The notes under the pieces were generated by a model. The model saw only the letters and a list, made by a program, of their open reading frames with translations. It did no database searches and was not told the origin of the DNA. From Pseudomonas phage Pa_AttikonH10: a stretch of DNA of 64,000 bases. Of the stretch, positions 19,641 through 22,224 are shown piece after piece; position 1 is the stretch's first letter, and the number at the start of each line of letters is the position of its first letter. The stretch is from the sequence record PQ741806.1. One strand, written 5' to 3'. Made by a program: the position numbers and the translations under genes.

Positions 19641-20423
19641 TTATTTTCTATGTGCTGCAACTTTACCATCCATTAGGTTATAAACTTCTTGAATGGTTTT
19701 AGGTGACCCATCTTTGTTATAAAAAATAGATGGGTTTGCCTGAGCTTCTTTTGGGAAATGGGTAGCAGCTAATTCATTCTGACCAGTGGTCAAGAAACGA
19801 CGCGCTGCACCAGGTCCAAAGAAGTGAGCTAAATAAAGATCAGTATCAGTTGGTTCACGTTTAAGGACGGGTCGAAGAATATTCATATTCTCTTTAATGA
19901 GTTCGGCACCCATTAAAGCACTTATACGTGGATCTTTACGTAATGCACCTGTTGGATCAGTAATTACGCCATACTTCATGCCATAGTTTTCAATCATTGT
20001 TTTCCATGTTCCAGTAAGGAATTGGAACCAACCAGTAGCTGATGAAGTCTTAGCTTTTATTTCGTAATCGAATGCTGATTCAATAGAAGCAAATGTTAAT
20101 AGCAACTGGCTACGAACACCAGTAGCATTTTCTACTGCATTCATAACTGGAGTTGCAGCTGCACGTGATTTATTTGCAGTTGGCATAGGGATAGTTTTAT
20201 AAGGAATAGGTGGGGAATATTTACTGAATAATTCAGCCCAAGTATTCTTACCTACAATACCATCACTATCCAGACAATTATCTTTTTGAAATTTAACTAC
20301 CTGATTAAAGGTATTATTTCCAAAAATACCATCTGGCTTTCCAACATCATAGCCACATAGATTTAATAGTGTCTGGAGTTGACATACCTCATCACCCCTA
20401 TCGCCTTTGCGTAATACTTTCAT
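19641..20423 (-). CDS. endolysin: N-terminal peptidoglycan-binding domain plus C-terminal lytic transglycosylase (phiKZ gp144/KZ144-type)
   Basis: 260 aa. The N-terminus has the PG_binding_1 pattern [31 protein letters not shown]. The C-terminus has an SLT-like catalytic region ESAFDY...[12 protein letters not shown]. Matches my recollection of the KZ144 sequence and length. Confidence 0.92.
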
Positions 20424-20442
20424 GATATAACCTCTACATATT

Positions 20443-20464
20443 AACCCAGTATGAACCCTGGGTT
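20443..20464 (-). terminator. stem-loop (AACCCAG-8nt-CTGGGTT), weak terminator candidate
   Basis: 7-bp stem between the 177-aa gene end and the endolysin start; no clear U-run. Confidence 0.3.
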
Positions 20465-20484
20465 AGGTTCATTGAGGGTATTAC

Positions 20485-21018
20485 TTAACTTTCTAGATAA
20501 CGGATTTGACCATTTTCTAGATAACGTGCTGCGCCATTCTCTAATAGCCGGATAGTATCTGATGTATCATCAATACGTTGAATTAGTATATTACATTCGC
20601 CATAGTAAGCATAACTACTCGACATAGCTACTATCGTGTATGGAACAACATCCGTAGTTGCATTGATTGGTGTTGTATCAAATGAAACATCATCTGGTCC
20701 AAGCTTCCAACCCCGTGAACGGTTGATTTCTTCAGCAATTGCTTTAGGTGTTAAAGTACCAACTATCTTAAGGATAGATCCTTCACCAATAGCTCGTGGA
20801 TCAGCAAAATCTAACCGACGGTAAGTTAACATGTACTTAATGTCAGTAGTAATGTCGATCATTTCAATAAATGTACGTCCAGGCTCAATCGTGGTTGGAC
20901 TAAAAAACATATCTTCAAATGTAACTGTTTCTGGTTTGAAGTTTATTTTTAAATCATCCCGCGCAAGTTTTACTAGCGCGTCCCTCGATGCCATGTCATA
21001 CGGAAAGATATCCTGCAT
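20485..21018 (-). CDS. hypothetical protein with C-terminal RYLENG-type tandem repeats
   Basis: 177 aa; C-terminus RLLENGAARYLENGQIRYLES; the same peptide motif is encoded in-frame downstream of the MCP stop codon. Confidence 0.6.
   Translation of the reverse strand: MQDIFPYDMASRDALVKLARDDLKINFKPETVTFEDMFFSPTTIEPGRTFIEMIDITTDIKYMLTYRRLDFADPRAIGEGSILKIVGTLTPKAIAEEINRSRGWKLGPDDVSFDTTPINATTDVVPYTIVAMSSSYAYYGECNILIQRIDDTSDTIRLLENGAARYLENGQIRYLES
20510..20526. repeat. 17-nt repeat CCATTTTCTAGATAACG (copy 2, inside the 3' end of 20485..21018)
   Basis: Identical to 46162..46178; TTCTAGATAACGGAT is repeated again at 20491..20505. Confidence 0.6.
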
Positions 21019-21065
21019 GTCAAACCTCTATAGTGGTAAAATGTTTAATCCACATAGCATTATAA

Positions 21066-21090
21066 AGCCTTCCTCTTGAAGAGGAAGGCT
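21066..21090 (-). terminator. terminator hairpin (AGCCTTCCTC-ttgaa-GAGGAAGGCT)
   Basis: 10-bp stem downstream of 21101..21535; T-rich on both sides. Confidence 0.6.
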
Positions 21091-21100
21091 ATTATAGTTT

Positions 21101-21535
21101 TTATTGCATAAGCATCTTTATTAATTCAAAGGTACCTTGCACAATAGTCTTTAACACATTGGCACTTTCTTCTGACATAGGTGCACCAGATAAAACTACC
21201 ATAGTAGATACTGATGCCCCAATAAGAGTAACACCACCAGCTAATACTAATACCGCATTACGGTAAGAATCTTTAGCCTTCACTTCAGCAATTTCCCGGC
21301 TGAGAATTTTATATTGAAGATCTGAATCAGTAATAGCATAAATTCGACTAAGTACTTCTTCACCAGTTATACTTAGATTTATACGTTGTTCCTTTTCCAA
21401 TACGCTATTTAAATAGGTACGTATCTTCTTTCCATAGTCTTTAGAAGAAGATAAAGGATTACCATCGATCTCAATCAGAACGTCCTCTAGGGTCATGACT
21501 ATTCTCCAAATTACGTTGACGTTCGTTCCATTCAC
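21101..21535 (-). CDS. small membrane protein, possible holin (single C-proximal TMD)
   Basis: 144 aa; hydrophobic segment AVLVLAGGVTLIGASVSTMVVL; sits between the endolysin and the spanins. The start may be the internal Met at 21496. Confidence 0.45.
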   Translation of the reverse strand: MNGTNVNVIWRIVMTLEDVLIEIDGNPLSSSKDYGKKIRTYLNSVLEKEQRINLSITGEEVLSRIYAITDSDLQYKILSREIAEVKAKDSYRNAVLVLAGGVTLIGASVSTMVVLSGAPMSEESANVLKTIVQGTFELIKMLMQ

Positions 21536-21833
21536 GCAATTTGTCTACTTGGATATTACATAGTCCAAGTGCATCAGTTTGTAAAAGCCAATGTTCGGTC
21601 ATAAGTAAGAAACGTGCTTCATTCTCATCAGTAACCCCAACAGCTTTATATCTATCTAATGCATTGATGATCTCATTAGCTGTAGGTGGGGCTTCTACAT
21701 CACAAGGGAGAAGCAAACTACTTGGGATTGCAACTGGTATTTTCACGGGCGGCGGCACAGTAGTGCTCGTACATCCGTTTAGCAATAACATTAATAGACT
21801 TATTAATGCTATCTTTTTTTGTGTCAGTTTCAT
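21471..21833 (-). CDS. putative o-spanin (Rz1-like outer-membrane lipoprotein), overlapping the i-spanin in another frame
   Basis: Internal start MKLTQKKIALISLLMLLLNGC (signal peptide plus lipobox-like LNGC); proline-rich mature part TVPPPVKIPVAIP with a second Cys. Confidence 0.5.
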   Translation of the reverse strand: MKLTQKKIALISLLMLLLNGCTSTTVPPPVKIPVAIPSSLLLPCDVEAPPTANEIINALDRYKAVGVTDENEARFLLMTEHWLLQTDALGLCNIQVDKLREWNERQRNLENSHDPRGRSD

Positions 21834-22224
21834 GTTTAATCTCAGTAGTGGTACTTTCCCCATTAGTTGTTTTAGCTTTAACCTCAGGCCATACAGGGGG
21901 AGTATATCCACGACCTGATAAACTAATGTACTCATCAATCACCTCAGTGCGTGATTGCGCCTGCTCTTTTTGTATCTCTTTCTTTTTAGTAATTAGTTCA
22001 GCTTGAATTTTATCGGAGATACGGTCTGATTCAATCCTAACCTTTTCTGCCGCTTCATAAGATTTAATTTTTCCAATTAAATCTGTAGAGCGAACAAGTT
22101 CCGTCTCATAACTATTTTTGTAATATATGATACCAATTAAGGCACCTATCAGAATAACTAATAGTAACCATATATGCAATGGCACACTACCAATTATTTT
22201 TCGTATACCTGCTAATAGGAACAT
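21718..22224 (-). CDS. putative i-spanin (Rz-like): N-terminal TMD plus periplasmic coiled-coil
   Basis: 168 aa; TMD IWLLLVILIGALIGIIYY, then a charged helical region EAAEKVRIESDRISDKIQAELITKKKEIQKEQAQ; the o-spanin frame overlaps its 3' end. Confidence 0.6.
   Translation of the reverse strand: MFLLAGIRKIIGSVPLHIWLLLVILIGALIGIIYYKNSYETELVRSTDLIGKIKSYEAAEKVRIESDRISDKIQAELITKKKEIQKEQAQSRTEVIDEYISLSGRGYTPPVWPEVKAKTTNGESTTTEIKHETDTKKDSINKSINVIAKRMYEHYCAAARENTSCNPK

Follow-up and report, generated by a model that had tools for sequence, protein, structure and literature searches.

A multigene lysis cassette with an overlapped spanin pair in the phiKZ-type phage Pa_AttikonH10

Gene content and relatives of the locus

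The window analysed here is a stretch of 64,000 nucleotides (nt) from Pseudomonas phage Pa_AttikonH10 (sequence record PQ741806.1), and our subject is a group of five genes between positions 19,641 and 22,224 that we interpret, with a probability of about 95%, as the multigene lysis cassette of a phiKZ-type jumbo phage. The window is reverse-complemented relative to the phiKZ reference and all five cassette genes therefore lie on the minus strand. In the order of transcription they encode an inner-membrane spanin subunit (i-spanin, gp141 equivalent, 168 residues, 22224-21718), an outer-membrane spanin lipoprotein (o-spanin, gp141.1 equivalent, 120 residues, 21833-21471), a holin (gp142 equivalent, 131 residues, 21496-21101), a lysis regulator (gp143 equivalent, 177 residues, 21018-20485) and an endolysin (gp144 equivalent, 260 residues, 20423-19641). 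A Shine-Dalgarno-like sequence is present upstream of every chosen start codon. All open reading frames (ORFs) that an earlier note on this DNA had described were recovered in place; that note had put the endolysin first, which by the direction of transcription is the last gene.

The region from 19400 to 22900 is 100% identical to Pseudomonas phages 6B, 124.01, 2PS and others, and reaches at least 95% identity in 47 records, every one of them from Pseudomonas. The three of these records that we opened (6B, SL2 and phiKZ) belong to Phikzvirus. Compared to phiKZ (NC_004629), the spanin region is 98.7% identical at the DNA level, with PHIKZ141, 141.1 and 142 as counterparts, and between one and three residues separate each of the five cassette proteins from its phiKZ counterpart. 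In all five genes, nearly all substitutions that distinguish the window from SL2 and phiKZ are synonymous. The guess of a Phikzvirus origin made in the earlier note was right, with DNA identities of 98.7-100% to Phikzvirus genomes. The gp141/gp141.1/gp142/gp143/gp144 cassette described for phiKZ (PMC12894885; PMC6139136) has the same gene order, lengths, overlaps and lipobox, and we found no difference of substance from it; the strain in the window is identical in this region to 6B, 124.01 and 2PS and is not phiKZ itself.

The cassette is already known in full, the spanin pair having been catalogued in 2018 and the five genes functionally tested in 2025/2026 (Manohar et al., preprint November 2025, Sci Rep January 2026; PMC12894885). 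What we describe is a correct rediscovery of a published cassette, and its practical value lies in the fixing of public annotations.

The spanin pair

At 21718..21833 (minus strand) 116 nt are read in two frames, encoding residues 131-168 of the i-spanin and, in the +1 frame, residues 1-38 of the o-spanin. Of the o-spanin gene's 363 nt, 116 thus fall within the i-spanin gene, and the other 247 nt extend past the i-spanin stop codon. On the basis that only this part is shared, the architecture is "overlapped" (P2 LysB/LysC type) and not "embedded", the class that we tested being the two-component spanin of overlapped architecture (Summer 2007; Kongari 2018). The 3' part of the i-spanin gene is indeed overlapped in another frame by a lipoprotein ORF, as the earlier note had proposed; the word "embedded" in its title was wrong. 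Kongari et al. 2018 (PMC6139136) list phiKZ as overlapped, placing its i-spanin (168 residues) at 144486-144993 and its o-spanin (120 residues) at 144877-145240, with 116 nt shared by the two. Since the ends, the lengths and the 116-nt overlap are the same, the phiKZ pair of that survey and the pair in the window are the same ORFs.

The i-spanin has a single N-terminal transmembrane domain (TMD), with a Kyte-Doolittle 19-residue maximum of 2.61 at residues 16-34 and no second hydrophobic segment, followed by a charged periplasmic domain and a C-terminal Y155-C156...C165 motif. This layout with one N-terminal TMD recurs across the eight genera that we aligned (described below), and Y155, C156 and C165 are invariant among them. 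It matched phrog_7584 ("Rz-like spanin", E 9.9e-69), a family built from phiKZ-like phages, and weakly phrog_214 (E 0.0011). Neither the i-spanin of the window nor its seven homologs matched a curated i-spanin model (lambda Rz or P2 LysB type) in Pfam or NCBIfam, and a PDB sequence search with the i-spanin gave no significant match. Three residues differ from phiKZ gp141, all of them inside the overlap with the o-spanin gene. The proposal of an Rz-like i-spanin with an N-terminal TMD agrees with the hydrophobic helix at residues 16-34 and with published work in which phiKZ gp141 and gp141.1 jointly complemented lambda RzamRz1am, which is defective in lysis, while neither did so alone (PMC12894885); the lambda RzRz1 complementation suggested in the earlier note had therefore already been carried out, with a positive outcome.

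The o-spanin (21471..21833, minus strand) starts MKLTQKKIALISLLMLLLNGC and consists of a signal peptide (MKLTQKKIALISLLMLLLNG), a cysteine predicted to be lipidated (Cys21), a proline-rich linker, which can be read directly behind the lipobox cysteine, and a conserved C-terminal domain (WEARFLLM, C44, C92). Its features for signal peptidase II comprise K2, K6 and K7, the hydrophobic stretch IALISLLMLLL, NGC with Cys21, and Thr at +2. The lipobox codons L18-N19-G20-C21 (LNGC; 21771..21782, minus strand) lie within the i-spanin codons for ...RMYEH.... The o-spanin fits the relaxed spanin lipobox, which admits any uncharged residue at -2, and LNGC is named among the o-spanin lipoboxes that deviate from the consensus (PMC6139136). 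The non-canonical Asn at -2 pointed out in the earlier note is real, in that LNGC fails the classical lipobox pattern; the signal peptidase II prediction that the note had recommended is positive in the published analysis, in which gene 141.1 was re-annotated to 120 codons and LipoP predicted its product as a lipoprotein of the outer membrane, with LNGCT as lipobox (PMC12894885).

Comparison with protein families revealed that the o-spanin scores 40.1 bits against the Pfam family LysC (PF23793, gathering threshold 27 bits; E 3.6e-10) over residues 16-59 and profile positions 1-45 of 69, and o-spanin homologs of all eight genera matched this family at E <= 0.01. The NCBIfam equivalog P2_Rz1 (NF038368) was missed, with 15.1 bits against a cutoff of 27 bits (E 0.02) and a match confined to the signal peptide region. 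The C-terminal domain (residues 40-120) corresponds to phrog_24791, a family of its own, and a PDB sequence search with the o-spanin gave no significant match. One residue differs from phiKZ gp141.1, and outside the overlap the o-spanin gene has three substitutions relative to phiKZ, each of them synonymous.

The pair is retained well beyond the immediate relatives of the window. Searches by tblastn with the 120-residue o-spanin found it at full length in 47 of 47 close relatives, with at least 99% amino acid identity in 46 and 95-99% in one, and the frame and the lipobox Cys are kept in every one of them. Among more distant Pseudomonas jumbo phages, 21 records gave weaker matches, to the C-terminal two thirds, and from these we fetched seven further genera. 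Each of the seven has an i-spanin-like ORF with an N-terminal TMD whose 3' end is overlapped in another frame by a lipobox ORF with a hydrophobic leader, the lipoboxes being LIGC, LHGC, LSGC, LSAC, LAAC, LTGC and LSAC. Position -2 is thus N, I, H, S, S, A, T or S across the eight genera. A contig of 230 kb from a distant metagenomic jumbo phage likewise carries an overlapped spanin pair (lipobox LTAC), and the overlapped arrangement is retained in all nine genomes compared. The conservation of the second frame, a check proposed in the earlier note, accordingly holds in the 47 close relatives, in the seven further genera and in the metagenomic phage. In the o-spanin C21, C44 and C92 are invariant in the eight genera, as are the periplasmic cysteines of both partners (C156 and C165 of the i-spanin, C44 and C92 of the o-spanin), and these residues may form intermolecular disulfide bonds between the two spanins.

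A chance open frame within the i-spanin gene was also considered as the origin of the o-spanin ORF. We rejected it because the ORF has two thirds of its length beyond the i-spanin gene, because different genera retain it along with its lipobox Cys, and because it passes the LysC threshold.

On the metagenomic contig (locus L011, 2775-5837) the i-spanin, the overlapped o-spanin, a 110-residue holin and a DUF7941 protein follow each other in the same order, with an extra DUF1353 gene, and the endolysin of this phage has a PF11860 muramidase domain instead of the SLT domain.

Among known systems, P2 LysB/LysC is the founding "overlapped" example, and the pair resembles it in that the o-spanin gene opens in the +1 frame within the 3' end of its partner gene and continues beyond that gene's end, and in that the PF23793 match covers the lipobox and the proline-rich region. 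It differs from P2 in falling below the P2_Rz1 equivalog, in an i-spanin with no detectable relation to LysB and in an o-spanin C-terminal domain that forms its own family. With lambda Rz/Rz1 the pair shares the two-component logic, and the phiKZ pair replaces Rz/Rz1 functionally in E. coli (PMC12894885). By contrast, lambda Rz1 is wholly embedded in Rz, whereas here 116 of 363 nt are shared, and we found no sequence match to Rz.

Holin, lysis regulator and endolysin

The longest ORF of the holin gene (21101-21535) begins with GTG at 21535 and would encode 144 residues, the length given in the earlier note. This start has no ribosome-binding site and was rejected. The ATG at 21496, with GGAG located 8-11 nt upstream, yields 131 residues, is the start used in the phiKZ annotation and corresponds to the conserved MTLE start in other genera, and the length of 144 residues is therefore incorrect. 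At the junction of the o-spanin and holin genes (21471..21507, minus strand) the GGAG (21507-21504) and the ATG (21496-21494) fall in the last 12 o-spanin codons, such that Glu110 and the tail His-Asp of the o-spanin double as translation start signals of the holin; E110, whose codon is the GAG of the GGAG, is invariant. The coding overlap of 26 nt is kept in six of nine genomes; in Noxifer it measures 38 nt, and PhiPA3 lacks it. The conservation of the junction suggests that translation may be coupled across the overlaps. We did not find the junction detail, or the hairpin and motif described below, in PMC12894885.

The holin has one TMD at about residues 81-103 of 131 (nt ~21188-21256) and no N-terminal signal sequence, and its layout is that of a large, presumably cytoplasmic N-terminal domain, a TMD and a short C-terminal tail, with the N-terminus probably in the cytoplasm. 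One residue differs from phiKZ gp142. No Pfam family was matched at E <= 1, no homology to T4 T or T5 Hol was detected, and a PDB sequence search gave no significant match. The earlier note had proposed this single-TMD protein as a holin candidate with its TMD near the C-terminus, and both points stand: phiKZ gp142 complements lambda Sam, is triggered early by dinitrophenol and was placed by the authors in a new subgroup, class IIIb (PMC12894885). A transposon screen recovered no insertions in orf142 or orf144 and five in orf143 (PMC12676376). With the T4 holin T and its antiholins RI/RIII, the holin shares the single TMD, a partner protein that alters timing and, presumably, an N-terminus inside. 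It differs from T4 in that there is no sequence similarity, in that the soluble domain is presumably cytoplasmic in the phiKZ-type holin and is periplasmic in T4 T, and in that the regulator gp143 is cytoplasmic, has the DUF7941 fold and accelerated triggering of the wild-type holin in published tests, with no delay.

Between the holin gene and the gp143 gene a scan for terminator-like structures uncovered a hairpin with a perfect 11-bp stem (21066-21090) followed by the motif TATAATGCTATGTGG (21064-21050; whole element 21050..21090, minus strand). The hairpin is kept in phiKZ, PS119XW, PhiPA3, Psa21 and Phabio with differing stem sequences, and the motif is conserved. Copies of TATAATGCTATGTGG with at most three mismatches number six in the window versus a mean of 3.9 in shuffled sequence, and 23 of 100 shuffles reach six, so recurrence of the motif as written is not shown. 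Transcription starts have been published upstream of orf139, orf143 and orf144 (PMC12676376). Since a hairpin followed by the motif fits a transcript end plus the published start site upstream of orf143, 21050-21090 is probably an element that ends one transcript and then serves as the phage promoter for gp143. Here phage 6B and the window differ at one base only, 21078, which lies in the loop of this hairpin. A second terminator-like hairpin, GAGAGTCCTTCGGGACTCTC (19538..19557, minus strand), is located 84 nt downstream of the endolysin stop codon and is probably the 3' end of the cassette.

The 177-residue protein, to which the earlier note had assigned no role, is the counterpart of a protein published as the cytoplasmic, holin-specific lysis regulator gp143 (PMC12894885). 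In that work gp143 advances holin triggering by ~10 minutes and requires the holin's cytoplasmic N-terminal domain to do so; in the published model its first globular domain binds this holin domain. The protein of the window has no TMD. Its score against the Pfam family DUF7941 (PF25613), which comprises filament proteins associated with the baseplate of chimalliviruses, is 18.3 bits, below the 27-bit cutoff, and the Noxifer ortholog scores 37 bits in the same region; precomputed PF25613 matches exist for 18 of 54 gp143 homologs. An AlphaFold2 model of gp143, built from a 53-sequence alignment (predicted local distance difference test, pLDDT, 88.2), had a single significant fold match in the PDB, chain 0 of 9xqd (E 1.8e-6, TM-score 0.59/0.68), which we confirmed as the outer baseplate protein PHIKZ127 and whose N-terminal domain is the part matched. 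Of the 78 BFVD matches of the model at E <= 0.001, those with a name are jumbo-phage virion or tail proteins. Judged by this model, the predicted fold of gp143 is a stand-alone DUF7941 N-terminal module.

At the level of sequence, phmmer and jackhmmer searches of gp143 against all ORFs of the window returned no significant paralog, the best weak matches being gp127 and gp126 (E 0.3-0.4), and hhalign of an eight-sequence gp143 profile against the single gp127 and gp126 sequences gave weak alignments (E 0.007 and 0.016, probabilities 5% and 3%). The relation between gp143 and gp127 is therefore clear only from the fold comparison. A PDB sequence search with gp143 gave no significant match. The C-terminus of gp143 (residues 157-177; 20485-20550, minus strand) comprises three 8-residue repeats (RLLENGAA, RYLENGQI, RYLES), in which R157, E160, R165, E168 and R173 are invariant in 53 homologs; the DUF7941 paralogs gp126 and gp127 have no such triple repeat.

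Two adjacent DUF7941 members are encoded in the window at 38562-39434 and 39443-39886, on the plus strand and thus opposite to the cassette, with 98.2 and 38.9 bits. The first is PHIKZ127, as checked against PDB 9xqd, and the second is presumably PHIKZ126 by position and size.

The endolysin combines an N-terminal PG_binding_1 domain (PF01471, 63.1 bits) with a C-terminal SLT lytic transglycosylase domain (PF01464, 24.7 bits), both above the Pfam thresholds, and has no TMD. It matches PDB 3bkh over the full length, and also 9xps_S, at E ~1e-178, and one residue differs from phiKZ gp144. In phiKZ, gp144 has a structural place in the virion as well: in the solved neck (PDB 9xps chain S; PMC13250141), the gp34 whisker ring is held against the tail sheath by six copies of gp144 that act as wedges, and its essentiality in the transposon screen consequently need not reflect lysis alone.

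Lysis pathway and competing explanations

In the standard multigene lysis pathway a holin makes holes, the endolysin escapes and the spanins are released (PMC12894885). For the cassette described here we propose that the first three genes, which overlap by 116 and 26 nt, are probably read from one late transcript ending at the hairpin at 21066-21090, and that gp143 and gp144 would be transcribed from their own starts. The holin gp142 would build up in the inner membrane with its N-terminus inside and form lethal holes at a set time, a timing that gp143 would shift by binding the cytoplasmic domain of the holin. The soluble transglycosylase gp144 could then exit via the holes and degrade the peptidoglycan, upon which complexes of the inner-membrane-anchored gp141 with gp141.1, held by a lipid anchor in the outer membrane, would be freed. 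Reaching across the periplasm, these complexes would destroy the outer membrane, probably through its fusion with the inner one. For near-identical proteins, published experiments have demonstrated spanin and holin function, the timing effect of gp143 and the enzymology and structure of gp144, and the five genes together cause lysis in E. coli and P. aeruginosa (PMC12894885). Each functional assignment made in the earlier note matches what was found for the phiKZ proteins.

Several points weigh against reading the locus as a lysis cassette. The i-spanin matched no Pfam family, and its sequence kinship to lambda Rz or P2 LysB is thus not demonstrated, in agreement with the published remark that gp141 lacks detectable similarity to an established i-spanin (PMC12894885). 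On the coiled coil that the earlier note had ascribed to the i-spanin, predictions for gp141 disagree: the 2018 survey predicts none in its table (PMC6139136) and the 2026 paper predicts one (CC1) plus helices (PMC12894885). Asn at -2 of the o-spanin lipobox fails both the classical consensus [LVI][ASTVI][GAS]C (quoted in PMC6139136) and the PROSITE-type pattern. The fold of gp143 is that of a baseplate protein family, and public records and PHROGs apply the label "virion structural protein" to gp142, to gp143 and, in 201phi2-1, to the i-spanin as well, on account of virion mass spectrometry. The complementation experiments were made in E. coli or from plasmids (PMC12894885), and the cited literature describes no phage in which a spanin or holin gene was itself mutated.

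If these labels were taken at face value, gp141, gp142 and gp143 would be virion structural proteins and the lysis seen with plasmids a side effect of overproducing membrane or assembly proteins. Besides the RefSeq and PHROG wording, such an explanation could draw on 201phi2-1, where gp226, gp227 and gp228 are recorded as virion proteins by mass spectrometry, on the fold match of gp143 to baseplate gp127 and to many jumbo-phage tail or virion proteins, and on the neighbouring genes gp139, gp145 and gp146, which encode baseplate and fibre proteins. However, membrane proteins often contaminate virion preparations, as the curators of the 2018 survey judged for 201phi2-1 gp226 (PMC6139136), and the text of the electron cryomicroscopy (cryo-EM) atlas of the intact phiKZ virion, with its 40 constituent proteins, makes no mention of gp141, gp142 or gp143 (PMC13250141). 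Moreover, the behaviour of the holin is specific, timed and sensitive to an uncoupler, the complementation by the spanins requires both partners (PMC12894885), the signal and anchor features suit envelope proteins, and orf143 tolerates insertions (PMC12676376). We consider it very improbable that the three proteins are structural ones. Even less credence is due to a different account of the lipoprotein ORF, by which it would start upstream at the ATG at 21863 (MGKVPLLRLNMKL..., 130 residues) or, owing to the Asn at -2, escape lipidation and give a periplasmic or inner-membrane-anchored protein. This second ATG is in frame and 30 nt upstream of 21833, Asn lies outside the classical lipobox set and the P2_Rz1 equivalog score is under its cutoff, but the ATG at 21863 lacks a Shine-Dalgarno-like sequence whereas that at 21833 has GAG 9-11 nt upstream, and the published LipoP analysis chose the same start codon (PMC12894885). 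In addition, homologs of other genera have I, S, A, T or H at -2 beside the invariant Cys, LNGC is among the listed o-spanin lipoboxes (PMC6139136), and the phiKZ pair complements the lambda Rz1 defect (PMC12894885).

An explanation that leaves the lysis cassette otherwise intact concerns gp143, which could have a dual role as a DUF7941 module that sits in, or docks on, a baseplate filament system and also binds the holin, so that the timing of lysis would be tied to virion assembly. A 2026 Goslar preprint lists phiKZ gp126, gp127 and gp143 as DUF7941 and proposes baseplate-anchored filaments formed by head-to-tail docking, which reportedly occurs via the N-terminal domain, in a family that is likewise reported from the peripheral baseplate. 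This preprint is silent on holins and has no citation of the lysis paper, and the lysis paper (PMC12894885) is silent on virions, structural proteins and DUF7941, so neither links the lysis regulator gp143 to the DUF7941 baseplate family. The fold match to the N-terminal domain of gp127, the DUF7941 matches of gp143 homologs, the reported docking and location of the family, and the altered holin timing with gp143 bound to the cytoplasmic domain of the holin in the published model (PMC12894885) are all compatible with a dual role, as is the detection of the 201phi2-1 homolog (gp228) in virions by mass spectrometry according to the record notes. On the other hand, the phiKZ virion atlas paper does not mention gp143 (PMC13250141), orf143 is dispensable in that insertions are tolerated (PMC12676376), and paralogs often gain new roles, such that a shared fold is no proof of a shared location. 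We regard the dual role as unlikely, and as slightly less likely again its specific form, in which gp143 would be a stand-alone copy of the docking module with which nucleus-forming jumbo phages build baseplate-anchored filaments, and would report virion assembly to the cytoplasmic domain of the holin as an assembly-coupled lysis clock. If this were true, binding of gp143 to baseplate or filament partners would make the pool of free gp143 fall or rise with tail assembly, and the conserved triple repeat (R-x-L-E-x-G, three times) would be a second binding surface. The link between gp143 and the DUF7941 baseplate family is the only thread of the region that might yield something new.

Returning to the lysis cassette and its representation in databases, most of the 47 Phikzvirus records contain at least one of three annotation problems: the holin and the regulator are given as "virion structural protein", the o-spanin is truncated past its signal peptide, or the o-spanin gene is omitted. 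The o-spanin is unannotated in PS119XW, PhiPA3 and 201phi2-1, and its start is called downstream of the signal peptide in 6B, SL2, phiKZ, Psa21 and Phabio; the "virion structural protein" label for the holin and the regulator occurs among these reference genomes too. Such problems with the o-spanin annotation occur in the reference genomes at the comparison loci L004 3444-3917 (minus strand), L005 2273-2719, L006 2255-2734 and L008 2303-2734.

Outside the cassette, the G+C content of the window rises to 0.44-0.47 in islands at 14001-18000 and 46001-48000, versus ~0.37 elsewhere in the window, and these islands coincide with very long ORFs at 13785-17066 (1093 residues), 17066-19435 (789 residues) and 46194-48437 (747 residues). 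The 789-residue protein (17066-19435, minus strand) is encoded just downstream of the cassette and is labelled variously in public records as "tail sheath", "tail fiber" or "structural head protein"; three tandem repeats of ~27 residues each, of the type SAYEIAVKNGFQGTETEWLDSLKG, are found in its N-terminus.

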